Of a stretch of DNA of 63,724 bases, positions 3,157 through 63,724 are shown piece after piece. The position numbers were made by a program, and so were the translations under genes. The first letter of the stretch is position 1; each line of letters starts with the position of its first letter. The notes below the pieces were generated by a model, which was not told the origin of the DNA, made no database searches, and saw nothing but the letters and a program-made list of their open reading frames with translations. Source of the stretch: a bacterium CG10_46_32 (GTDB lineage: Bacteria > Patescibacteriota > Patescibacteriia > UBA2169); the NCBI GenBank assembly GCA_001889965.1, contig MOEI01000028.1, forward strand, positions 1-63,724, read 5' to 3'.

Positions 3157-5238
3157 ATGGCAGTGCGCACTGTGGCTCTTATTATAATTTTTGCGGGGGG
3201 GTTGTTTTTTTTGAGCAAAGGAACAGTAGCTGCTGCTGTTCCAAATGACACTTTTTATACAAAAGATCAGCTGTCATATTTTAACCAAATACATCTTCCT
3301 GAAGCCTGGGATATAACCATTGGTTCAAAAGATGTGATTATTGCAGTAATTGACGCGGGCGTTGATACTGATCACCCGGATATTATTGGAAACATATGGT
3401 TGAATCGGGGCGAAAAGCCATTAAACGGGATTGATGATGATGGTAACGGATATGTTGATGATTTTAATGGATGGGATTTTTTGGAAAACACATCTGATCC
3501 GCACCCTAAGTTTGGTAATGGATACACATTTGGCGGCGCCAACCACGGAACTGTGGTCGCTGGAGTAGCAGCGTCCGTTTCTAATAACTCCGAAGGCTTG
3601 GCGGGTGTATGTTGGAATTGCAAAATTATGGCTTTGCGTGCTCTTGATGCGAACGGAGAGGGAGACACCAAGCATATTGCCGTGGCCATTGATTACGCGA
3701 TTGCAAACGGTGCGGACATTATTAATATGAGTTTTGTTGGCGCGGCAACGGACCTGGCTCTGTCTGAAGCGGTCGCGCGCGCGTACCAAGCCGGCGTGGT
3801 GCTGGTCGCGGCAGTCGGCAATGATGCAGACAACAGTGAGTTTGTTGTGGGAGATTTAGATTTTAGGCCATTATATCCAGTGTGTTTAGATGGCGGATTA
3901 GGGATGAATCATGTTCTTGGAGTCGGGTCTGTCGACAGCAATAATACAAAATCAATTTTTTCAAATTACGGCTTCAGCTGCATTGATATTAATACGCCAG
4001 GAAACGGCATTGCCGCTCCTCAATTGTATGATCCTTCGCGCGGCACTGATTTTGAGAACAAGTATCGTGGGGGCTGGCAGGGAACGTCCGTGGCTGCTCC
4101 TATTGCGTCTGGAGTCGCGGGATTGATGAAATCAATAAATCCAAAGCTCTCAAACAATCAGATTATTTCTATTATCCGGGACACAGCTATTGATATTTCA
4201 AGCCAGAATTCGCTCCGCATCACCGAGATTGGGGAAGGGCTTTTAAACGCCGAAGCTGCCGTTAAAAAAGCAATGGAGACAGTTGGTGTTGGGTTGGGGA
4301 AAGCAAGTCGCCTATTTTCACAATCCGGAAAAAAGAATATTCTAGTTTCCTCCGGCGTAGGTCGTGAAGTAGGCGCGCGCGTTTCGGACGCATTTGGTGA
4401 AAATTCTTTTCAATGGCAGACATACCCATCATTTTTTCGTGGGGGAGCAGAAATCGTTTCCGGAGATATAGACGGGGATGGGAAATCTGAAATTATAACC
4501 GGCGCAGGAGCAGGTGGTGGTCCACAGGTGCGTATTTTTGATACCCAAGGAAATGTCAAAGGACAGTTTTTTGCGTATGATTCAACATTTCGCGGCGGCG
4601 TGCATGTGGCAACTGCAGATTTTGATGGTGACGGCATTGATGAAATTGTAACATCAGCTGGAGCTGGACTCTCAAGCGAAGTGAAAATTATGGATATGAA
4701 CGGATTAGTCAAATGGTCGTTTAATGTGACTGCAGACGGATTAAAAGGGGGAATTACGGTCCAAGCCGTTGATATTGACAATGATGGCGAAAGTGAGGTG
4801 ATTACCGGCACTGGCGGAGGTTCATTGCCGCTCGTGCAGATATTTGATAAGATGGGGAACAAGGAGGCACAGTGGCTTGCATATCCAGAATTTTTTCGAG
4901 GAGGCGTGAATGTTGCAGTTGGAGATGTAGATGGCGACGACGATTTGGAGATTATAACTGCCGCAGGAGAAGGCGGTGGTCCGCAGATTCGAGTGTTTTC
5001 CTCAAGTGGACAAGTAGAAACTCAATTTTTCGCGTTTGAACAAACATTTCGCGGCGGCGCGAACCTTGCCGTGGGAAATGTAGATAGCGACAAGACCGCG
5101 GAAATTATTGTGGGCTCGGGCAGGGGCCGCGTTTCGGAGGTTAGAGTATTCAGTAAATTCGGTGTTGATTTTGTGCAGGACTCAATGTTCAGTGTATTTG
5201 AAAAAGATTATCAAGGAGGTGTACACGTAGGAATTTAA
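3157..5238 (+). CDS. Secreted subtilisin-like serine protease (S8) fused to FG-GAP/integrin-alpha-type repeat propeller
   Basis: Catalytic triad motifs DAGVDTDHPD, HGTVVAGVAA and GTSVAAPIASG. The C-terminal half consists of repeated FRGG...GD.DGDG..EI..G.G.GGGPQ.R.F blades. Confidence 0.9.
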   Translation: MAVRTVALIIIFAGGLFFLSKGTVAAAVPNDTFYTKDQLSYFNQIHLPEAWDITIGSKDVIIAVIDAGVDTDHPDIIGNIWLNRGEKPLNGIDDDGNGYVDDFNGWDFLENTSDPHPKFGNGYTFGGANHGTVVAGVAASVSNNSEGLAGVCWNCKIMALRALDANGEGDTKHIAVAIDYAIANGADIINMSFVGAATDLALSEAVARAYQAGVVLVAAVGNDADNSEFVVGDLDFRPLYPVCLDGGLGMNHVLGVGSVDSNNTKSIFSNYGFSCIDINTPGNGIAAPQLYDPSRGTDFENKYRGGWQGTSVAAPIASGVAGLMKSINPKLSNNQIISIIRDTAIDISSQNSLRITEIGEGLLNAEAAVKKAMETVGVGLGKASRLFSQSGKKNILVSSGVGREVGARVSDAFGENSFQWQTYPSFFRGGAEIVSGDIDGDGKSEIITGAGAGGGPQVRIFDTQGNVKGQFFAYDSTFRGGVHVATADFDGDGIDEIVTSAGAGLSSEVKIMDMNGLVKWSFNVTADGLKGGITVQAVDIDNDGESEVITGTGGGSLPLVQIFDKMGNKEAQWLAYPEFFRGGVNVAVGDVDGDDDLEIITAAGEGGGPQIRVFSSSGQVETQFFAFEQTFRGGANLAVGNVDSDKTAEIIVGSGRGRVSEVRVFSKFGVDFVQDSMFSVFEKDYQGGVHVGI

Positions 5239-5243
5239 ACCAT

Positions 5244-6305
5244 ATGCCAAATACTAAAGGAGTGTTTAAAAAGAAAAATGTAGTGGTTATCGGCGGAGCT
5301 GGATTTATTGGGTCGCATGTTTGCGAAGCTTTGATAACAAATAAAAGAACGCAGGTTGTTTGTATTGACAATCTGGTTTCTGGCACCATTATGAATATTG
5401 AGCTGTTGTTGCAATCGCCAGATTTTAAATTTATAAGGCATGATATTACTGAGCCTATTGACCTTGCGGTTTTTCCCGAGCTTGCTCCATTCGAAATTGA
5501 GTTTGCGGGCATACAAGAAATGTATAACTGTGCAACGCCGACTTCCTATAAAGATCCCAAGCGTTTTGCCATGGAAACCGCATTAATGCATTCTGTGGGT
5601 ATTAAGAATATTTTAGATCTTGCCAAGCGACATACCGCAAAGGTGGTGCATCTTTCGTCCTCTGCTATTTACGGCGACCCACCGCCAGAGCAAGGACATT
5701 TTAAAGAAGATTATTGGGGATTTATTAATCCAGTTGGTGAGCGAGCTGCGTACAACGAAGGCAAGCGTTTTAGCGAGACCATGTGCACTGTGTATCGCGA
5801 AAAAGAAGGCCTTGCTATTTCCATTGCTCGCATTTTTTCCACCTATGGTCCGCGTATGATTATGGCTGAAGGCAGGCATATTCCGGATTTTATTACAGCG
5901 GCAATAGACAACAAAGATATTGTCATCTATGGAGATAAAGAAAAAACCAGCACGTTCTGTTATGTAAAAGATACAGTCGAAGGGATTATAAAGCTGATGG
6001 AGGCATCTGATGAGATGGGCCCAATCAATATCGGCAGTGACAAAGAACATAAACTTACTGAGATAGCAGAGCAGGTGATTGCATTAGTGGGTTCAAAATC
6101 AAAAATTAATTTCGCGGCAAATCTTCCGGGTATTGCGGAACAAGGCATTCCAGATATTCAAAAAGCCAAAGACGCATTAGGTTGGTTTCCAGTAGTTACA
6201 CTCAAACAGGGCCTGACTGAATCAATTGAATATATGCGTTCAGTAAAATCAAGCTACGAACAGAAAGGGTTGTGGGATGAGAGCACGTTGGATAGGAAGG
6301 AATAA
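5244..6305 (+). CDS. UDP-glucuronate decarboxylase (UDP-xylose synthase)-like SDR
   Basis: GGAGFIGSH Rossmann motif, plus YGDPP..E.YWG.INP.G.RAAYNEGKRFSE...IARIFSTYGPRM, which matches the UXS family signature as I recall it. Confidence 0.85.
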   Translation: MPNTKGVFKKKNVVVIGGAGFIGSHVCEALITNKRTQVVCIDNLVSGTIMNIELLLQSPDFKFIRHDITEPIDLAVFPELAPFEIEFAGIQEMYNCATPTSYKDPKRFAMETALMHSVGIKNILDLAKRHTAKVVHLSSSAIYGDPPPEQGHFKEDYWGFINPVGERAAYNEGKRFSETMCTVYREKEGLAISIARIFSTYGPRMIMAEGRHIPDFITAAIDNKDIVIYGDKEKTSTFCYVKDTVEGIIKLMEASDEMGPINIGSDKEHKLTEIAEQVIALVGSKSKINFAANLPGIAEQGIPDIQKAKDALGWFPVVTLKQGLTESIEYMRSVKSSYEQKGLWDESTLDRKE

Positions 6306-6306
6306 T

Positions 6307-7257
6307 ATGAAGGTGCTTGTCACTGGAGGAGCCGGGTTTATCGGCTCCCATATCGTTGACGGTTTAGTTAGTGAGGGTCACGAAACCGTGATCCTCGATG
6401 ATTTTAGTGCAGGCAATCATGAGTTTGTTAATTCCGCGGCAAGCGTTGTGGAAGCGGATATTCGGGATACGGAAGCCGTTAATCGTGCGTTTCAAGAACA
6501 GCAACCCGAGGCAGTGTTTCATTTGGCTGCAATGGTTGACCTAAGAGAGAGTTTAAAAAATCCAGAAAAGTCATATGCAGTTAATGTTATTGGATCGCAG
6601 AATATAATTCGCGCCGCGAAAAATGTGGGCGTCAAAAAATTTATTTTTTCATCATCAGCAGCAGTGTATGGAAACAATAATAATTTGCCCATAAAAGAAT
6701 CAGAACCCATAGCGCCAACTTCTCCGTATGGTGAGCAAAAAGCAGAAATTGAAAAAGCGCTCAAAGATTCTGGCGTTCCATCAATTGTGTTGCGCTACGC
6801 AAATGTGTACGGCCCGCGGCAAGGTACGGTCGGCGAAGGAGGGGTAGTTGCAATTTTTTGCAAAAAATTGCGTGCAGGCGAACAGCTTGCTGTGTTTGGC
6901 AGCGGAGAACAAACGAGGGACTTTGTGTTTGTAGATGACGTTGCCTCCGCAAATCTTAAGGCCTTGGCATATACAGGGGCGTATGCCATCTGCAACATCT
7001 CAACCCGCATCGAAACCAGCGTAAACCACATTGCTTCCGCGCTCTTGTCAGTATCCCAAAAAAATACTACTATTTCTCACACAGAAGCGCTCCCAGAAGA
7101 AGTGCTTCGGAATAGCTTAGATTCTAGTTTTGCCCAGAAAACGCTTCATTGGGAGTCTGTAATAAGCATTGAAGAAGGGCTAGAAGCCACATGGAAGTGG
7201 TTTACAGAAAATGTCAAAGTCAAAAATTCAAATGCCAAATCAATGCCAAAATTCTAA
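6307..7257 (+). CDS. NAD-dependent epimerase, UDP-glucose 4-epimerase (GalE)-like
   Basis: MKVLVTGGAGFIGSH start preceded by GGAAGG; SSAAVYG and YGEQK (YxxxK) motifs. The ORF-track start at 6277 was trimmed to the RBS-backed ATG. Confidence 0.85.
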   Translation: MKVLVTGGAGFIGSHIVDGLVSEGHETVILDDFSAGNHEFVNSAASVVEADIRDTEAVNRAFQEQQPEAVFHLAAMVDLRESLKNPEKSYAVNVIGSQNIIRAAKNVGVKKFIFSSSAAVYGNNNNLPIKESEPIAPTSPYGEQKAEIEKALKDSGVPSIVLRYANVYGPRQGTVGEGGVVAIFCKKLRAGEQLAVFGSGEQTRDFVFVDDVASANLKALAYTGAYAICNISTRIETSVNHIASALLSVSQKNTTISHTEALPEEVLRNSLDSSFAQKTLHWESVISIEEGLEATWKWFTENVKVKNSNAKSMPKF

Positions 7258-7328: not shown

Positions 7329-8621
7329 ATGAGACTATCCATTATTGGCGCGGGATACGTAGGGCTCGTCAGTGGAGCCGCATTCGCAGAATTTGGACAT
7401 GATGTCATTATCATGGATATTGATCGTGAGAGGATCGCAAAACTGCAGCGTGGCATTGTTCCAATTCACGAACCAGGACTTGACCGACTTTTGGATAAAA
7501 ATTCAGATCGAATCAGTTATACTTCCAACATGGAAGAGGCAGTGCGCGAAGCTGATATCCATTTTATTTGCGTGTGGACTCCTCCATTAGAAGACGGAAG
7601 CGCGGATCTTTCAGCCGTGCGTGCGGTTGCGCGCGAACTTGGAAAACAGTTTGTAAAACTAAAGGTTAAAACTCCAATTATTGTAACAAAAAGCACGGTG
7701 CCAGTTGGCACGGGTGTTGCTATTCAGCGCCTTGTTCGGCAATCCTATAAAGGTGATTTTAGCGTTGTATCAAATCCGGAATTTTTACGCGAGTCCCAGG
7801 CAGTTGCGGACATGCTTCGGCCAGATCGGATTGTAGTTGGTTCAAATGATCCAGATGCTGCGAAAACTATTGCAGGGGTATACCACGATGTTAATGCGCC
7901 GATTATCATGACAGATTTGGCAACAGCGGAAATGATTAAATATGCGGCAAACGCATTTTTGGCAACCAAGATTTCTTTTATTAATGAAGTTGCAAATATT
8001 TGCGAAATTGTGGGCGCGGATGTCGAGCGGGTTGCCGAAGGAATTGGACATGATCCTCGAATCGGCAAGGCGTTCCTTAAAGCAGGTATGGGATATGGAG
8101 GTTCATGTTTTCCAAAAGACGTTCGGGCATTGCATCAGTTTTCGAACGCAAGCGGATATGATTTTAAACTTTTAAAATCCGTGATTGAAGTGAATGAGCA
8201 GCAGCGGCAGATGATTGTTGATAAAGTTAACAAGCATTTAAAAATTTTGAACGGCAAAAATATTCTCGTTCTAGGCTTGGCGTTTAAAGCGCATACTGAT
8301 GATGTACGTGAATCTGGAGCGCTTGATATCATCGAGCGTCTGCAAATACAAGGGGCGAACATTACTGCCTTTGATCCGCTTGCATTGTTGAATGCAAAAA
8401 AGAAATTAAATGATTTAGTTATTCTTGTTGGAAACGCGCACGAGGGTGCGGTTGGGGCTGATGCGATTATTGTTGCCACGGAATGGCCAGACTTTAAAGA
8501 GTTGGATTGGGAGCGCATCCAGAGTGTAATGCGTAAGCCGCTTATCATCGATGGCCGAAATTTACTTGATCCGAGTGAAATGAGAAAATTAAAATTCATC
8601 TACGAAGGGGTAGGAAGATAG
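7329..8621 (+). CDS. ugd: UDP-glucose 6-dehydrogenase
   Basis: 430 aa with an N-terminal IIGAGYVGL Rossmann motif and the GYGGSCFPKD catalytic-Cys motif. Length is typical of Ugd. Confidence 0.92.
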   Translation: MRLSIIGAGYVGLVSGAAFAEFGHDVIIMDIDRERIAKLQRGIVPIHEPGLDRLLDKNSDRISYTSNMEEAVREADIHFICVWTPPLEDGSADLSAVRAVARELGKQFVKLKVKTPIIVTKSTVPVGTGVAIQRLVRQSYKGDFSVVSNPEFLRESQAVADMLRPDRIVVGSNDPDAAKTIAGVYHDVNAPIIMTDLATAEMIKYAANAFLATKISFINEVANICEIVGADVERVAEGIGHDPRIGKAFLKAGMGYGGSCFPKDVRALHQFSNASGYDFKLLKSVIEVNEQQRQMIVDKVNKHLKILNGKNILVLGLAFKAHTDDVRESGALDIIERLQIQGANITAFDPLALLNAKKKLNDLVILVGNAHEGAVGADAIIVATEWPDFKELDWERIQSVMRKPLIIDGRNLLDPSEMRKLKFIYEGVGR

Positions 8622-9305: not shown

Positions 9306-9392
9306 GGCTGTTCGGGGCTATAAATTTTTTCGCTCCGAAGGGGGCTAGAGCCCATACATTCTCGCTACAAAATTTATAGCCCCTGCACACCC
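9306..9392. repeat. Copy 1 of an ~85-nt hairpin-forming intergenic repeat (GTTCGGGG...CTCCGAAGGG...CCCTGCACACC)
   Basis: Shares termini and core with 54824..54904 and 63526..63607. GGGGCTATAAATTTT pairs perfectly with AAAATTTATAGCCCC. Confidence 0.85.
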
Positions 9393-9400
9393 TAGATCAA

Positions 9401-9739
9401 ATGAATCATATGTTAATCCAAATCATCACAACCATTGTCGTTTTATTCCTGATTACGCGCGTAGGCGGAAGGCTTAAGCGTAGGGAAATTACTTTTAAAG
9501 AAGCCTTGTTTTGGGCGCTTCTGTGGTTTGGCGTTGGGATTGTAGTTCTGTATCCGAAGCTTGCGGACCGCGTTGCATCATATATTGGATTACAAACCGC
9601 AACTGGTATTGATTTAGTAGTATATATTGCGGTTGGCCTAGCGTTTTATCTTATCTTCCGATTATTCGTGCATATTGAGCGCGTGGAGCGTGATATAACT
9701 AAAATCATACGCCACCTGGCTTTGAAAGATGAAGAATAA
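9401..9739 (+). CDS. DUF2304-type small membrane protein (GacJ-like partner of the upstream GT2)
   Basis: 112 aa with three hydrophobic helices. The R/K-rich loop (GRLKRREITFKEALFW) and C-terminal amphipathic ERVERDITKIIRHLA match my recollection of DUF2304. It lies directly downstream of a GT2, as that family usually does. Confidence 0.75.
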   Translation: MNHMLIQIITTIVVLFLITRVGGRLKRREITFKEALFWALLWFGVGIVVLYPKLADRVASYIGLQTATGIDLVVYIAVGLAFYLIFRLFVHIERVERDITKIIRHLALKDEE

Positions 9740-10766
9740 CCTCGCAATAATTATTGTTACTTACAACGGAAGCACATGGATTAAAAAATGCCTTGCTTCC
9801 GTTTTTCGGAATGACCCCACACAAGGGGGGTATGATGTCATTTTGATTGATAACGCGTCGCACGATGGGACCGCGGATATTGTGGAAAAAGAATTCCCAC
9901 CGGTTGCTGTTATCCGCTCCAGTAAAAATCTTGGATTTGTAGGCGGTAATAATCTGGGAATCAAAGAGGCGTTACGTCACCAGTACGAATATATTTTAAT
10001 GTTGAATCAGGATACAGAGGTTGTGTCTGATTTTTTTTCTGAAATTATAAAAGTTGCGGTGCTGGATCATGTTGGAATCGTACAAGGGATGCTGGTGTTG
10101 GGGGATGAGCGGTCATTAACAAACAATGCGGGTAATGCGCTTCATTATTTAGGTTTTGGGTTTGTAAAACAGTATGGCGAACCAGTTGAACGATGGGCGA
10201 GTCGTGAGCCGTTTGAAATTGGGTATGCATCCGGCGCTGCGCTTCTCGTCAAAAGAGAAGTACTGGAACACATCGGGGTGCTGGATGAGAAGTTTTTTAT
10301 GTACCATGAGGATTTGGATTTGTGCTGGCGCGCGAAATTGGCCGGCTACCGCGTCATGTTGGCTCCGAAAGCAATTGTGTATCACTACTATGAATTCAAC
10401 CGCAACAAGGAAATGTTTTATTGGACCGAGCGCAACCGGTGGGCTGTACTGTTGCAGAACTACAGCGCCAAATCACTCATACTCCTTTCGCCGATGCTCG
10501 CGGCCACCGAACTAATGATGCTTGTATATAGTGTAATGAGTGGATGGCTTGGCAAGAAGCTTAAGAGTTATGTTTGGATTTTAGCGCATCTTCCCCAAAT
10601 TTTTGCACAACACCGGCGCGTGCAGTTGTCGCGCACGGTTAGCGATAAACGCATTTTTAAAACCATGGATGCCACGTTTACTATGGCGGGAATAAATAAT
10701 CCAATCATTACAAGAGTATTGAATTCACTGTTTACTGTTTATTTTGCGATCATCAGAATCATATGA
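9729..10766 (+). CDS. GT2 glycosyltransferase (rhamnosyltransferase/WbbL-like)
   Basis: IIVTYNG, IDNASHDGT and YHEDLDLCWRA motifs. Overlaps the upstream gene by 11 nt. Confidence 0.88.
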   Translation: MKNNLAIIIVTYNGSTWIKKCLASVFRNDPTQGGYDVILIDNASHDGTADIVEKEFPPVAVIRSSKNLGFVGGNNLGIKEALRHQYEYILMLNQDTEVVSDFFSEIIKVAVLDHVGIVQGMLVLGDERSLTNNAGNALHYLGFGFVKQYGEPVERWASREPFEIGYASGAALLVKREVLEHIGVLDEKFFMYHEDLDLCWRAKLAGYRVMLAPKAIVYHYYEFNRNKEMFYWTERNRWAVLLQNYSAKSLILLSPMLAATELMMLVYSVMSGWLGKKLKSYVWILAHLPQIFAQHRRVQLSRTVSDKRIFKTMDATFTMAGINNPIITRVLNSLFTVYFAIIRII

Positions 10767-14623: not shown

Positions 14624-15679
14624 TTATAGAAGATTTTTTGGGAAGATTCCGTTTTCAAACCAAACGTTCCATCCTTTGTAATGTTTGTGTTTTTGTATTT
14701 CAGCACGCTTGTGTTTCATAGTTGCTATGCCAGCCAATCCATCAGCCATTGCTTTGGCGATGATCCAAGGCCTGTCTTTAAATATATAACCAAAGAAGAT
14801 GGTCATCCATCCGAGAATAATCCAGAGCACATTGCGGAAGAAAACCGCTGTAGGATAATTTTTGTATTGCGTCCAAATCAAATTACGGTAGGTAGTATAT
14901 ACCGCAAAATCCGAAAGCTTGCTTGTTGATGCAGAGCCCTTGTGATATACAACTGCGTCTTTATCATACCCTGCTTCAAATCCGAGCAAGTGGGCGCGGA
15001 ATCCGAGGTCAATGTCTTCGGTGTATGCAAAGTATGTTGGATCAAAATACCACTTGTCATTGCGAGGGAGGGTACTCCCGACCGTGGCAATCTTATCATC
15101 GCCATGGTTGCCTGTAGCCTTGGAATCGTGCTCTGAGGCGACGTTAGGATTGCCGCGCTCCGCTACCGCTCCGCTCGCAATGACACAGGCTTCTAATAAC
15201 CTTCTAGAGTACAGTGCGCATCCCGCAGAGGGGCAGAAGATCTTTTGCTTTTCATTCAATCGGTTGAAAGGTAAACCGCTTTTCATCATCACCACGCCGA
15301 GGTTGTCTACTTTGTCGCGATTGTTGTATTGCATCATGTGGCCGGCAATCATATCACCCTTAGCTTGCGCCATGGTAGTCAAAAAGCTCGGTTCAACTTC
15401 AGTGTCATTATTAAGGACTAGGACGGCATCGGTGGCGTCATTAGCAAGTGCGTGCCTCATGCCTATATTATTGCCCTCCGCAAAGCCTAGATTACTCTCA
15501 TTCTGAATGAGAGTAATCTTGGGAAATTCATCCATCAAAACCTTGCCGTGGCCATCTGCGTCATTATTTACAACAATGACGGAGTAGCTCGGATAGTCTA
15601 TTTTTTCAAGCGATTTTAAGCAGGCCTTGGTGTCATCAAGGTTTTTGTAGTGCAGGACAATAATTGCAATATGTGACAT
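14624..15679 (-). CDS. GT2 glycosyltransferase carrying an in-frame repeat insertion
   Basis: MSHIAIIVLHYKN, VVNNDADG and YTEDIDLGFRA motifs; paralogous to 9729..10766. The track ORF extends to a TTG at 15727; the ATG at 15679 fits the usual GT2 N-terminus. Confidence 0.85.
   Translation of the reverse strand: MSHIAIIVLHYKNLDDTKACLKSLEKIDYPSYSVIVVNNDADGHGKVLMDEFPKITLIQNESNLGFAEGNNIGMRHALANDATDAVLVLNNDTEVEPSFLTTMAQAKGDMIAGHMMQYNNRDKVDNLGVVMMKSGLPFNRLNEKQKIFCPSAGCALYSRRLLEACVIASGAVAERGNPNVASEHDSKATGNHGDDKIATVGSTLPRNDKWYFDPTYFAYTEDIDLGFRAHLLGFEAGYDKDAVVYHKGSASTSKLSDFAVYTTYRNLIWTQYKNYPTAVFFRNVLWIILGWMTIFFGYIFKDRPWIIAKAMADGLAGIATMKHKRAEIQKHKHYKGWNVWFENGIFPKNLL
15056..15184. repeat. 129-bp GTCATTGCGAGG...CTCGCAATGAC palindromic element inside the GT2 CDS
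   Basis: Same terminal inverted repeat as 16539..16626 and 20813..20930. It is exactly 43 codons, read on the minus strand as VIASGAVAERGNPNVASEHDSKATGNHGDDKIATVGSTLPRND. Confidence 0.85.
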
Positions 15680-15714
15680 ATTCATATAGGTTATTGTTAT
15701 GGTAGTATAGCTAT

Positions 15715-16536
15715 ATGAAAGATACAAGAAACATTCTATATGTCGCTCGTTCCTTTCTCTGGGGCGGGTCTGTTCTATTTCTCGCCTGGCTGTTTTTCCA
15801 GAACCTGGTGCCCACCGGGGAGTTTGTTTTACAGTACAAAAAAGGGAGCGCTATTTCGCCGATTACGGATCTGCATCCGGAACAGCGCGTGATTGATTTG
15901 GATGATGATGGCCCGAATAGCCAGCGTTTTTATGTTGATCCTGTGTACTTTGATGCAAAAGTTCCGCGCGAGTTTGATACGGTGACCGTTGATATAACAT
16001 TCCAAAATCAAGCCCAACCAATCTTGGAGCTAGGTGCACGTCGTTTGCGTGGAAGTTGGGGTTTTGTAATGAAGCCGTTGCAGAATACAATTATCGACAA
16101 CCTCGATTGGCCGTGCCAGCGGTATGATGGTGTACTGTTCTGCCAAAAGCAGGAGCGTTATACGAACCTTTCTGCATTACTGGTAAAGCCTCCTTCCGAA
16201 CCAATTTTGACGTACCACTATGCGCTTCCAGAGAATATTCAGTGGGATGTTATGAATGTAAATACTGATACAAGCGAGTATAATTATCTGGTGGCAACAT
16301 ATACGCCTCCTGAATCACTAGGAGATGATTGGTACCGAACTAGTGTTCCATTTGTATGGAGCGATTTTGAGTTGTACATCAACGAGATCAGTTTTTTGGT
16401 TTCTGCTCCGGAATTAAATAAAGGACATGGTGATATTGTGCTTAAGGATATTACTATCCTACTCAAGCGCGACCCATTGGATTGGAACGGATTTGTTGAG
16501 TACATAAAAAACCAATTGAAAAGATTAAAAACTTAG
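15715..16536 (+). CDS. Hypothetical membrane-anchored protein
   Basis: 273-aa ORF with an N-terminal TM helix. No family recognised. Divergent from the GT2 gene. Confidence 0.7.
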   Translation: MKDTRNILYVARSFLWGGSVLFLAWLFFQNLVPTGEFVLQYKKGSAISPITDLHPEQRVIDLDDDGPNSQRFYVDPVYFDAKVPREFDTVTVDITFQNQAQPILELGARRLRGSWGFVMKPLQNTIIDNLDWPCQRYDGVLFCQKQERYTNLSALLVKPPSEPILTYHYALPENIQWDVMNVNTDTSEYNYLVATYTPPESLGDDWYRTSVPFVWSDFELYINEISFLVSAPELNKGHGDIVLKDITILLKRDPLDWNGFVEYIKNQLKRLKT

Positions 16537-16538
16537 TT

Positions 16539-16626
16539 GTCATTGCGAGGGAGCGAAGCGACTGCGGCAATCTTATCAACCAGCCGCAGCTCGATGGTAA
16601 GATTGCTTCGCTACGCTCGCAATGAC
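16539..16626. repeat. 88-bp intergenic copy of the GTCATTGCGAGG...CTCGCAATGAC palindromic element
   Basis: Perfect 11-12-nt terminal inverted repeats. The internal arms GCGAAGCGACTGCGGCAATCTTA / TAAGATTGCTTCGCTACGC also pair. Confidence 0.9.
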
Positions 16627-16816
16627 AATTCTACTAAAACTCAATACCGAGCTATTCCGTGCATCCGGAGTACTTACGCTTGTGCTTTACTTTTTAGAGA
16701 CGCTGAAAGATGGGTATGTATCGTTTTTCGTTAATCCGGCTATCATGCTGGCTGTTTTTGTCGTATCCGGCATAATCTGGCTTTTTACTCCTGATTCTGG
16801 TAAAGTAGGGGTATGA
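16622..16816 (+). CDS. Possible small two-TM membrane protein
   Basis: 64-aa ORF whose stop overlaps the rmlC ATG (ATGA at 16813). Its ATG is the ATGAC terminus of the repeat. No clear SD. Confidence 0.4.
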   Translation: MTILLKLNTELFRASGVLTLVLYFLETLKDGYVSFFVNPAIMLAVFVVSGIIWLFTPDSGKVGV

Positions 16817-19738: not shown

Positions 19739-20412
19739 AGCTGCCTCTTATTACTCCTTCTCTGGTAACATACACCAAAGGAAAGCCGGTTTCGCGCGGG
19801 TATATTGATGCGCGCATCCGGGAAATTAATGCATTGGGGCTTAAAGAAATTTCTTTATTTGTGACGGGGTACGAAAAAAAAGGGCGCGACTATGTCCATG
19901 AAAAACTCAAGACCACGGGCATTGTTTCGATTCCGCACGTACATATCCGCGCAGACCAAACTGAGCACGAGGTTCGGCATTATATGGAAACATATGGTAC
20001 GCGCCGCTTTACGACACACTATGAGTATATTCCGTATTTTACAAAATTCAGTGCAGATGTGCGCGCTTGCATTGGCATAGAAAATAATAATGATTTTAAG
20101 CTTGATAAAAAATTGGATCGATTTGGCGGGCTGGTGATTGATCTCTCACATTATGTTGATGTGCGGGAACAAGGCATTGCTCGTGATATTGAACGCGCCC
20201 TCGAACGGCTGCCGGTTTTAGTGAATCACGCGAGCGCGGTGACTGCGGCGAGCGAGTCGCGCCATTTTGCCCGCAGCGTACAGCAATACGCATACCTGCG
20301 TACTATGCCAAAAAAATGTTTTAGCGAGGTGGTGAGTTTGGAGATTGGCAATACTCTTGCCGCGCAATTAAGCTTTATCCCTTTTATTAAAAAGCAACTG
20401 GCACGCGTATGA
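19735..20412 (+). CDS. Hypothetical protein embedded in the rml operon (possible TIM-barrel fold)
   Basis: 225 aa from the ATG that overlaps the rmlB stop (ATGA); its own stop overlaps the rmlD ATG. IGIENNN and IDLSHY faintly recall xylose-isomerase-like/AP-endonuclease-2 barrels. Confidence 0.65.
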   Translation: MKLPLITPSLVTYTKGKPVSRGYIDARIREINALGLKEISLFVTGYEKKGRDYVHEKLKTTGIVSIPHVHIRADQTEHEVRHYMETYGTRRFTTHYEYIPYFTKFSADVRACIGIENNNDFKLDKKLDRFGGLVIDLSHYVDVREQGIARDIERALERLPVLVNHASAVTAASESRHFARSVQQYAYLRTMPKKCFSEVVSLEIGNTLAAQLSFIPFIKKQLARV

Positions 20413-21338
20413 AAACACTTATCATAGGCGCAAAAGGCATGCTCGGCCAGGAGCTTGCAAAAGCATTTACAGAATTCAATCCCACCGTATGGGATGTGAG
20501 CGATATTGATATTACCGACCAATCCCAGGTCAACGAGAAAATGAGCATGCTCGCGCCGGAGCTCATCATCAACGCGGCAGCATACACCAATGTGGACGCA
20601 TGCGAAGAGAACGAGGAGCTTGCCACAAAAGTTAATGGTACTGCAGTAGGGTATCTTGCAAGAGTTGCATCAAACCTTGGCGCGACCTTGGTGCACTATT
20701 CAACGGATTACGTGTTTGATGGAACTCAGCAGGAGGGGTATACAGAACTTGATACGCCGCATCCAATTAATGCCTATGGGCGGTCAAAACTTGCAGGAGA
20801 GCAGGATATACTGTCATTGCGAGGGAGTGAGCAGTACCCTGCGAACGACCGAAGCAATCTTAACGACGAGAATAGGCCTTTTGGTGACGATAAGGTTGCT
20901 TCGTTGGCGAGTACGCCTCCTCGCAATGACAGATGGTACATCATCCGCACCGCATGGCTCTATGGGCACGCAGGGAAAAATTTTGTGGAGACCATGCTTT
21001 CAATGGCTCAAGCGGGTGAGCCATTGAAAGTAGTAGATGACCAGATCGGCTCGCCAACGTACGCGCCGGATTTGGCACAGGCAACTTTTGATCTCGTAAA
21101 AAGTGGTAAACCAGCAGGCATCTATCACCGCACCAACAGCGAAACAATAAGCTGGTACGGATTTGCCAAGGAAATTTTTGAGGTGTATGGTAAGGACGTT
21201 GATTTAGTGCCGTGCGCAACTATGGAATATCCGCGCCCAGCAAAGCGCCCTACGTTTTCGACCTTAGTATCAACAAAGCTTCCTTCGCTTCGTTCGTGGC
21301 AAGAGGCGCTCCGAGAGTACGCGTCATTTCATCATTAA
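20409..21338 (+). CDS. rmlD: dTDP-4-dehydrorhamnose reductase with ~40-aa repeat-derived insertion
   Basis: IIGAKGMLG, INAAAYTNVD, STDYVFDG, YGRSKLAGE, IIRTAWLYG and DQIGSPTY are RmlD motifs. Confidence 0.9.
   Translation: MKTLIIGAKGMLGQELAKAFTEFNPTVWDVSDIDITDQSQVNEKMSMLAPELIINAAAYTNVDACEENEELATKVNGTAVGYLARVASNLGATLVHYSTDYVFDGTQQEGYTELDTPHPINAYGRSKLAGEQDILSLRGSEQYPANDRSNLNDENRPFGDDKVASLASTPPRNDRWYIIRTAWLYGHAGKNFVETMLSMAQAGEPLKVVDDQIGSPTYAPDLAQATFDLVKSGKPAGIYHRTNSETISWYGFAKEIFEVYGKDVDLVPCATMEYPRPAKRPTFSTLVSTKLPSLRSWQEALREYASFHH
20813..20930. repeat. 118-bp GTCATTGCGAGG...CCTCGCAATGAC palindromic element inside rmlD
   Basis: With flanking bases, CTGTCATTGCGAGG / CCTCGCAATGACAG form a 14-bp terminal inverted repeat. 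The internal GAAGCAATCTTA / TAAGGTTGCTTC arms also pair. The rmlD ORF is uninterrupted. Confidence 0.9.
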
Positions 21339-21342
21339 ACTA

Positions 21343-21403
21343 GATCCCTCGACTCGCGAGGAAGCCTGCCCCGAGTATTCCCGAGGGGCTCGCTCGGGAT
21401 GAC
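21343..21403. repeat. Related GTCAT-type repeat fragment (…CTCGCTCGGGATGAC)
   Basis: GATCCCTCGACTCGCGAGG...GGGGCTCGCTCGGGATGAC between rmlD and rmlA. It has the same ...CGCTCG-NNN-ATGAC ending as the other elements. A shorter relative is at 17696..17721 (…TTCGCTCAGGGTGAC). Confidence 0.45.
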
Positions 21404-21414
21404 AGCTATTTTTT

Positions 21415-36087: not shown

Positions 36088-36181
36088 GTCATCCTGAATC
36101 CCGAAACCAGTTCGTGACAGGCCTTGTTTCAGGATCGACCTATAAAATTATATGAAGATGCTGAAATAAATTCAGCATGAC
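36088..36181. repeat. Two adjacent GTCAT-type palindromic repeat units upstream of rarA
   Basis: GTCATCCTGAATCCCGAAACC...GTTTCAGGATCGAC (36088..36139) and GATGCTGAAATAAATTCAGCATGAC (36157..36181). Confidence 0.7.
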
Positions 36182-54823: not shown

Positions 54824-54904
54824 GGTGTTCGGGGTGTGCATTTTTCGACTCCGAAGGGATCATAGCTCATCATTCTCATCTCAAAATGCACACCCTGCAC
54901 ACCC
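54824..54904. repeat. Copy 2 of the ~85-nt hairpin-forming repeat
   Basis: GGTGTTCGGGG...CTCCGAAGGG...CATCATTCTCATC...CCCTGCACACCC. The inner stem GGGTGTGCATTTT / AAAATGCACACCC differs in sequence from copy 1 but still pairs. Confidence 0.85.
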
Positions 54905-63525: not shown

Positions 63526-63607
63526 GGTGTTCGGGGGTATACATTTTTTCACTCCGAAGGGGGGCTTCGTCCATACATTTTCGCTAGGAAATGGCCCCCT
63601 GCACACC
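63526..63607. repeat. Copy 3 of the ~85-nt hairpin-forming repeat
   Basis: GGTGTTCGGGGG...CACTCCGAAGGGGGG...CCATACATTTTCGCTAG...CCCCCTGCACACC. It starts 7 nt after the DUF4012 stop and ends 34 nt before the IS end. Confidence 0.8.
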
Positions 63608-63641
63608 ATTAATTTAGGCTAGAATTAGCCCTGTTAAGACA

Positions 63642-63724
63642 CTGTTTTCTAGTCAATAGCTTGTAATCACTTCCAGTGGTGTTTTCATGTTAAGCCCCAT
63701 GTGCGGTCTCTCAGTATTGTAGTA
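63642..63724 (-). mobile_element. Second copy of the same IS terminus, inverted (transposase 3' end on the minus strand)
   Basis: Exact reverse complement of 17..99. The minus-strand frame 63653..63724 reads YYNTERPHMGLNMKTPLEVITSY-stop. Confidence 0.75.

Follow-up and report, generated by a model that had tools for sequence, protein, structure and literature searches.

A hairpin repeat read through as a glycosyltransferase loop, probably a miniature of a GIY-YIG nuclease cassette

The subject here is a 63,724-nt stretch of bacterial DNA (the whole of it is called the window) and a palindromic repeat element that it carries in three copies, named c1, c2 and c3. Copy c1 lies within a gene for a GT2 glycosyltransferase and is read through, in frame, as a loop of the enzyme. 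Probably c1 is an inverted-dimer hairpin repeat of the superfamily of CGTC-tagged repetitive extragenic palindromes (REPs) and Ssn-related motifs (SRMs), without an open reading frame (ORF) of its own and a miniature of a cassette that does carry one, for a GIY-YIG nuclease. An earlier note on this DNA had described a repeated palindromic element, its in-frame presence in a GT2 loop just before a conserved (Y/F)xEDxDL motif, and a second in-frame copy in another enzyme of glycan synthesis. All of this was borne out; the class of the element and its link to a GIY-YIG nuclease go beyond that note.

The element in the window

The features concerned are as follows.

15056-15184, minus strand (the translated strand): element copy c1, 129 nt, in frame in the GT2 gene
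14624-15685, minus strand: GT2 glycosyltransferase gene (GT-A fold), host of c1, identified by Pfam, alignment and model, with its catalytic-region motifs intact
16539-16626, plus strand: element copy c2, 88 nt, between genes
16622-16816, plus strand: gene for a 64-aa protein whose ATG is within the right terminus of c2, aligned with a 65-aa protein of locus L005; the gene is also called in loci L002 and L003
20813-20930, plus strand: element copy c3, 118 nt (120 with flanking T/A), in frame in rmlD
20409-21338, plus strand: rmlD (dTDP-4-dehydrorhamnose reductase), host of c3, identified by PF04321 and by PDB 1vl0 and 3sc6
21343-21405, minus strand: low-confidence candidate, located between rmlD and rmlA, for a single unit, degenerate, from a related subfamily (TGTC-ATCCC...GGGAT-C)

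The termini of c1 are a perfect 11-nt inverted pair, GTCATTGCGAG and CTCGCAATGAC, extended by one complementary base (T...A). Perfect occurrences of the 11-mer number six in the window and together make up the three elements. With one mismatch allowed there are 7 matches where about 1 is expected, and none of 100 shuffles reached 7. Each copy folds into one long hairpin (RNA z about -6, -45 to -65 kcal/mol), the values for c1 against shuffles being z = -6.5 as RNA and -4.0 as DNA. GC content is 60% for c1 and 53-60% for the elements, compared with 44% for the window. The candidate unit at 21343-21405 folds no better than shuffles (z = -0.9), and the SRM search motif does not match it.

The window contains housekeeping genes, RNase P RNA and one tRNA; judged by this content, by the named homologues and by the absence of a transposase, it is a chromosome fragment of a Patescibacteria/Parcubacteria-type organism. 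The GT2 protein sequence is found on at least 8 contigs, and over 20 kb the assembly of a second JGI sample shows 99.995% identity. As c1-c3 are unchanged in this independent metagenome assembly, they are not an assembly artefact. All three copies and the doubtful unit fall within 6.4 kb of a surface-glycan locus; the rest of the 64 kb has none.

Copies in two enzymes and at a gene junction

The minus-strand ORF at 14624-15685 translates c1 as VIASGAVAERGNPNVASEHDSKATGNHGDDKIATVGSTLPRND, 43 codons with no stop. Its product has Pfam matches to PF00535 (E=2e-13, residues 8-165) and PF13641 (E=9e-11), and of its 1136 homologues the named ones are from Patescibacteria/Parcubacteria. The c1 segment stands between LLEA and (K)WYFDPTYFAYTEDIDLG, directly upstream of (Y/F)xEDxDL, and is missing from the paralogue at 9729-10766 and from most homologues (alignment A2); the loop has 18 aa in the shortest form of the family and 62 here. 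The nearest homologues (65% identity) read LLEA-VAYERDGTQ-YYFD at this point, with no palindrome. [VAYERDGTQ resembles collapsed forms such as VIAREHTRDD and VIASEAKQSD; that it is a decayed remnant was an idea only considered.] D92 and E221/D222/D224 are invariant in the alignment, and these acidic motifs, PF00535 and the GT-A fold place the product in the GT2 family. The AlphaFold2 model has a mean predicted local distance difference test score (pLDDT) of 84.6 and a predicted template modelling score of 0.85, and its sole long low-confidence stretch, residues 173-205, is within the insert (residues 166-208), which thus appears as a low-confidence coil on a confident GT2 fold. In a Foldseek search with the model GlfT2, RmlT and ppGalNAc-T came out on top, with probability 1.00.

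Copy c3 is read on the plus strand as (L)SLRGSEQYPANDRSNLNDENRPFGDDKVASLASTPPRND inside rmlD. The product matches PF04321 (E=1e-89) in two separate stretches, retains the catalytic YxxxK as YGRSK in alignment A3, and aligns over its full length with PDB 1vl0 (E=2e-62), which together identify it as RmlD. Query residues 1-137 correspond to chain residues 13-151 and 173-305 to 152-287; the 35 residues in between (138-172) have no counterpart in 1vl0, where chain residues 151 and 152 are contiguous. The insert lies between the helix after YxxxK and the next strand. The segment concerned has 28 aa in the base form of RmlD and 63 aa here, and the AlphaFold2 model (pLDDT 91 overall) drops below 50 for residues 140-167. 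The earlier note's picture of a clean insertion does not extend to rmlD. Judged by the alignment, the c3-derived stretch is a replacement of the loop, not a simple addition: most of the ancestral 7 residues (QSSGLKN) are lost, and the net gain is 34 aa for an element of 118-120 nt.

Copy c2 starts 2 nt past the TAG stop codon of the upstream ORF (15715-16536), and its right terminus, CTCGCA-ATG-AC, gives the start codon of the downstream 64-aa gene. In the element-free relative L005 the same two genes overlap at ATGA (...AAGACATGAGG...). The translation of the window gene, MTILLKLNTELFRASG..., aligns with the 65-aa protein of L005, MRLLALKLNTELFRASG.... All three copies therefore occupy sites where only non-disruptive insertions could persist.

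Anatomy, distribution and class of the element

GTDB was scanned, one genome per species, with the pattern GTCATTGCGAG-N(10-40)-GCAATC. The element was matched at at least 120 loci in each of GTDB genomes, metagenomes and IMG/VR viral contigs. Among the matches listed, the GTDB hosts include Alpha-, Gamma- and Deltaproteobacteria, Chloroflexi, Planctomycetes, Nitrospirota, Zixibacteria and Bacteroidetes, as well as Cyanobacteria, Firmicutes, Oscillospiraceae, Helicobacter, Melainabacteria and Patescibacteria. On tailed-phage contigs (L251, L254, L255, L256 and about 15 more IMG/VR loci) arms are found beside SPP1-type portal, capsid and adaptor genes. Phages could be vehicles for spread of the element between phyla.

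Complete elements are mostly 73-135 nt long, with the consensus YGTCATTGCGAG - (GAGCGAAGCGAC or CGAAGC) - GAAGCAATCC(A) - variable loop - (T)GGATTGCTTC - ... - CTCGCAATGACR. An arm is made up of a YGTC tag, ATTGC...GCAAT and a short tail, and the two arms are inverted with their tags outward. The flanking base belongs to the palindrome: positions -1 and +1 are complementary in 93 of 114 complete elements, and position -1 is T in 75 and C in 36 of them. The tail reads GCAAT-CCA in most GTDB copies and GCAAT-CTT or -CCT in the window copies. [Arms also occur in another arrangement; at 1345-1956 of L014, from a Chloroflexus metagenome-assembled genome, and on the viral contig L307 there are same-strand arrays with a spacing of about 42-51 nt and no inverted dimers.]

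The element belongs to the CGTC-tagged REP / SRM superfamily, in the form of an inverted dimer. The first of these groups, with its dimers and its intragenic in-frame copies in several Alphaproteobacteria and Coxiella, was described by Di Nocera, De Gregorio and Rocco (2013, BMC Genomics 14:522; PMC3733652), who place Neisseria dRS3 and Rickettsia RPE-4 and RPE-6 in it and conclude that it is without a dedicated transposase. The likeness to the group as described there lies in the CGTC/TGTC tag (TGTC at both ends of c1, c2 and c3), in a stem starting with AT, in the predominance of inverted dimers with outward tags, in location near gene ends and in documented in-frame genic copies. Tag-outward dimers are the form taken by c1-c3 and by 48 GTDB and 87 metagenome elements; the fold z of whole elements is -4 to -7. 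Of the CCA tail given there for CGTC-tagged REPs, most copies from outside the candidate phyla have a likeness, and the tail of the window copies is CTT. The available text has hosts in 5 phyla, candidate phyla not being among them, and the peptides VIAS.., SLRG.. and ..PRND are missing from its intragenic list.

Rfam has no family for the elements at its gathering thresholds, nor at E<=1. A full-text literature search for the exact termini gave unrelated primers only, and one for palindromic repeats or REPs in the candidate phyla radiation (CPR)/Patescibacteria gave nothing relevant.

A GIY-YIG gene between the arms

Clustering of the ORFs across 360 element-bearing loci brought out one small protein family, which in 10 of 12 loci lies no more than 50 nt from an arm; a member of it matches PF01541 (E=2.5e-16). 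At eight loci, all outside the window, GTCATTGCGAG and CTCGCAATGAC arms bracket a GIY-YIG ORF of 95-98 aa on both sides, with a span of 364-470 nt. The layout of these composites is (T)GTCATTGCGAG - long arm - GCAATC - 15-50 nt - ATG...stop - (A)GATTGC - short arm - CTCGCAATGAC(A). In all eight the ORF comes after the long arm, and in most its stop directly adjoins the short arm's inner stem. In c1, c2 and c3 the long-arm type is likewise on the left of the plus strand. The short elements, c1-c3 included, are ORF-less miniatures of this cassette.

The reverse test started from the protein. When viral loci were picked by GIY-YIG similarity alone, 10 of 12 had inverted hairpin repeats on both sides, with a tag of the YGTCAY type in most of them; the stem differs from subfamily to subfamily. 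The repeat of one of them, L378 (CGTCATTCCAGCGAAAGCTGGAATC), is close to Neisseria NTS, and the relatives of the nuclease found by similarity that have NTS-like flanks are 39-55% identical to it. The nuclease family is large, at more than 3,000 clusters, and its annotations go no further than 'GIY-YIG nuclease family protein' or 'putative endonuclease'. [Homologues from the cultured organisms Melioribacter roseus and Calothrix sp. 336/3 were tried and set aside; their arms are of other or degenerate types, with no intact GTCATTGCGAG termini.]

These features lead to the Ssn enzymes, single-domain GIY-YIG proteins of about 94 aa (Chenal et al. 2025, Nat Commun 16:2388; PMC11893778). Ssn binds the hairpin repeat NTS (CGTCATTCCCGCGMAVGCGGGAATCYRG) as single-stranded DNA (ssDNA) and cuts upstream of it, and the target has been generalised to the SRM; ssDNA binding and one-strand cutting have been demonstrated for the Neisseria and Wolbachia homologues only (PMC11893778). 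In that study 42% of ssn genes have an SRM on both sides, the NTS-ssnA-NTS arrangement is likened to an insertion sequence (IS), and only 2% of the NTS copies of N. meningitidis are intragenic (PMC11893778). The present family is like SRM-ssnA-SRM in its upstream (C/T)GTCAT and in having inverted copies around a single-domain GIY-YIG gene of about 95 aa, and like SRM/NTS in its broad phylogenetic spread and its many gene-less copies. It is unlike them in that its tight dimers are often translated within genes and in that the published degenerate motif does not match it; the place of its partner in the Ssn clade (cd10448) is putative. That motif, HGTCWYN(0-2)YYVSBRHN(0-5)WNVSBRGN(0-2)RNCYNB, has no match in the whole window. 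As it matches no arm of this family, the screen of Chenal et al. would have missed the family.

How copies may have arisen and spread

The parent would be an IS-like cassette of the SRM-ssn-SRM kind, with the nuclease gene sitting in the hairpin loop, and the miniatures would stand to it as a MITE (miniature inverted-repeat transposable element) does to its parent IS. A cognate Ssn-type nuclease may recognise the arms as ssDNA and drive, or have driven, their spread. On any one strand only a single arm is in cleavable orientation. GIY-YIG nucleases hydrolyse DNA, and we know of no strand joining or transfer by them. Copies would have entered the GT2 surface loop, rmlD and the gene junction without leaving a target-site duplication. 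Those within genes would survive only where the total insertion keeps the frame, the frame used is free of stops and the site tolerates the added residues. Transcription and translation of a surviving copy would yield a loop that is hydrophilic and probably disordered, and the inserts are presumed translated and near-neutral.

Several observations weigh against this explanation. The 64-kb window has neither a transposase nor a GIY-YIG gene or other homologue of the nuclease of the composites. CGTC-tagged REPs have an 8-9-bp stem and a 4-5-nt loop (PMC3733652); here, unlike there, the stem of a single arm is 5 bp (ATTGC/GCAAT), split by 12-30 nt (often with GCGAAGC), and of four single arms three have folds no more stable than those of shuffles (z +1.2 to -0.4), the other having z -2.3. 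The SRM motif fails on six window arms and two consensus arms, a control NTS being matched. For the GIY-YIG proteins NCBIfam has no named family, and a comparison with the PDB gave a weak match to UPF0213 only. The nearest element-free homologues found have 65-71% protein identity, too distant to fix the exact junctions. Finally, recurrent entry into the same enzyme loops, described below, could reflect targeting that the explanation does not cover.

Tolerated rather than selected in coding DNA

The earlier note held that the element is tolerated, or even selected, in coding DNA. Tolerance is supported. Residence in long ORFs, defined by 50 or more open codons to either side, was compared in three independent samples with that of random windows of the same length from the same loci.

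GTDB genomes: 12 of 65 elements in long ORFs (0.18); random windows 0.70
Metagenomes: 9 of 70 elements in long ORFs (0.13); random windows 0.51
Viral contigs: 11 of 42 elements in long ORFs (0.26); random windows 0.61

Element copies are thus 3-4 times rarer in long ORFs than random windows are. Lengths of genic copies modulo 3 are distributed 5/5/2 in GTDB and 3/4/2 in metagenomes, with no enrichment of multiples of three, and the GTC...GAC length is no predictor of frame preservation. The length of exactly 43 codons holds for c1 (129 nt) and is not a property of the element, the 118 nt of c3 not being a multiple of 3. About 38% of an element's six reading frames are open, compared with 28% in shuffles, and the TGA in AATGAC always closes one frame at each element end. 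The depletion fits frequent insertion followed by purifying selection that spares harmless survivors, and there is no sign of selection for coding copies. The 'or even selected' of the earlier note finds no support in the depletion, the mixed lengths, the modest share of open frames and the low-confidence coils of the inserts.

The same data bear on the proposal that the insert is an adaptive protein module under selection, or a recombination-control site kept in glycan genes. The confinement of the copies to 6.4 kb of the glycan locus speaks for it, as does the presence of repeat-derived peptides in the same GT2 and RmlD loops in many lineages. So does the precedent of Neisseria, where NTS repeats around surface-protein genes modulate transformation (PMC11893778); the clustering in the window recalls that of NTS around such genes, and with the few copies here it is only a lead. 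Yet no copy is present in a second cluster of glycosyltransferase genes (55.8-63.5 kb), the window has no nuclease gene, and the inserts vary in sequence and length among homologues and are modelled as disordered, in addition to the depletion from ORFs. The proposal is unlikely.

Loops entered by several repeat families

In many other Parcubacteria homologues, too, the GT2 loop in which c1 sits contains peptides derived from repeats. Some are of the same family, as in P0006 (VIARERTRDRGNP...ARDD), with remnants in P0016, P0035 and P0056. Others come from different tagged families, as in P0018 (VILSEARRK...AQND), P0015 (RHPELVSGS...VRHDD), P0040 (HPERSEAESRD...LRQAQGD) and P0013 (VIPNTH...NNQND), or from unrelated Pro/Gly-rich palindromes (PHPSPLP...GEGV, PSFTKEGAGGW). 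The arm in P0006 matches the left (plus-strand) arm of c1 at 35 of 37 DNA positions and is at the opposite end relative to the gene; the two therefore reflect separate events or an inversion.

Much the same is seen in RmlD, where 33 of 105 homologues are longer than the base form. Inserts of the same family are present in P0137-P0139 (ILSLRAKRSNP...VPRND), next to VILNEAKRSEES...AQDD, many remnants of the MLKQVQHD type and the PPLNPPLTKGG types; the nearest homologues (71% identity) have no such insert.

The shared loops could mark a small number of insertion-tolerant sites, or could reflect a sequence preference, in that ancestral flanks resemble element ends. A bolder version, which is a long shot, has an Ssn-type system inserting at preferred DNA contexts (flanks like the element ends: ATTCTG, GTN, ACATGAGG), or has the embedded hairpins serving as ssDNA nuclease sites through which the uptake and recombination of this glycan locus are modulated, in the manner of Neisseria NTS-gene-NTS. 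If so, the coding sequence of a CPR bacterium that naturally scavenges DNA would at the same time be a signal for the control of recombination.

[Further insertions were noticed in both enzymes. Two more GT2 loops (A2 columns 43-57 and 135-165) have Pro/Gly-rich inserts, PPLTKGGIEGG, PPPVSRRGSGGG and PLSPLPLGKGETQRG, in P0005, P0006, P0009, P0010, P0018, P0031, P0034, P0040 and P0041; they look like translated GC-rich palindromic repeats of another class. The RmlD homologues P0123, P0140, P0150 and P0138 (A3) have repeat-derived C-terminal extensions (...DSRFRGNDNRIL; ...SCHSDQSESL), and a further insert, SAQGGSALGGN, is found in another loop in this set. DSRFRGND is the signature given for CGTC-1 / RPE-6 in the supplement of Di Nocera et al. 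(PMC3733652).]

Other mobile and RNA elements

REPINs are non-autonomous doublets of GTAG-type REPs mobilised, via ssDNA hairpins, by a REP-associated tyrosine transposase (RAYT, of Y1/HUH type). The present element is like them (Bertels and Rainey 2011) in being an inverted doublet that forms a long hairpin, in lacking a target duplication and in its slightly asymmetric arms. The partner and the tag differ: YGTC and a GIY-YIG nuclease stand here in the place of GTAG and the Y1/HUH transposase, no Y1 gene lies between arms in the 360 loci, and PMC3733652 reports no RAYT flanked by CGTC REPs. The element-rich contig L178 does encode a RAYT-like Y1 protein (226-840), a lead that was rejected on finding that the gene is flanked by a different palindrome of its own, TATAAGGACAGTCCTTATAGATGC. 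That the element is a REPIN is improbable. [L178, an 8-kb metagenome contig, has three in-frame copies of the element in large ORFs, at 3204-3314, 6253-6355 and 7355-7448.]

A classical MITE, the deletion derivative of an IS with a DDE transposase that is mobilised in trans by cut-and-paste, would account for the perfect 11-12-nt terminal inverted repeats, the small size and the many dispersed copies. It would be expected to show a target-site duplication. Across 114 elements direct repeats of 2-8 nt, at offsets of 0-2, are no commoner than in shuffled pairings. Nor was a DDE transposase found between the termini, where the GIY-YIG nuclease is the only recurrent gene, and the tag-stem-tail anatomy fits REP/SRM elements and not IS ends. 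This makes a MITE of that kind very improbable.

Hardly any weight can be given to a structured RNA or regulatory hairpin (a terminator, mRNA stabiliser or translational-coupling element) that overlaps coding sequence by chance; the very stable fold and the place of c2 at a gene junction, a position in which REPs are often credited with an effect on mRNA (PMC3733652), would suit it, but Rfam gives nothing even at E<=1, conservation of the termini is at the level of sequence, without covariation, copies are in both orientations relative to genes and also inside ORFs, and no T-run follows any copy.

Relation to Rickettsia repeats and significance

A further close parallel is with the Rickettsia palindromic elements (RPEs), of which RPE-1 was reportedly described by Ogata et al. 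in 2000. Like RPE-1, the genic copies here are palindromes of 100-150 bp, in frame in unrelated genes of a small-genome bacterium and read as extra surface segments that are missing from orthologues. Unlike RPE-1, they are of another sequence family and host phylum, and a gene-carrying parent is identifiable; we know of no nuclease partner for RPE-1.

Translated in-frame copies of the CGTC-REP class are already known in Rickettsia and other Alphaproteobacteria. What appears to be new relative to the literature is their presence in candidate-phyla hosts, the identity of the pan-bacterial GTCATTGCGAG family as a miniature of a GIY-YIG cassette missed by the published motif, and the reuse of two enzyme loops by several repeat families. 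Rickettsia-style repeats within proteins are thereby extended to candidate-phyla bacteria, with their dense genomes and few neutral sites. The gene-carrying and miniature forms of the family give concrete candidate pairs of nuclease and substrate, and the reused loops a natural map of sites where insertions are tolerated. In metagenomic proteins, spurious 'insert domains' of the types VIAS..., SLRG..., ...PRND and ...LAMT are to be expected by annotators.

Other repeats in the window

At 36088-36135 there is a lone tag-like sequence, CGTCATCCTGAA..., with no partner arm; it probably arose by chance, or else as a unit of another subfamily that has decayed. There is also a second family of repeats, about 85 nt long, with copies at 9309-9390, 54824-54903 and 63528-63610 (mean column identity 80%, n=3) and the pattern GGTGTTCGGGG.TATA.ATTTTTTC.CTCCGAAGGGGG...CCATACATT.TCGCT..AAAT...CCCTGCACACC; its copies have internal inverted repeats and no Rfam match, and each starts at most about 15 nt past a stop codon. 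The public contigs measure 63,798-63,823 nt. The ends of the window, 17-99 and 63642-63724, are perfect reverse complements over 83 nt, which looks less like biology than like a fold-back artefact at a contig end.

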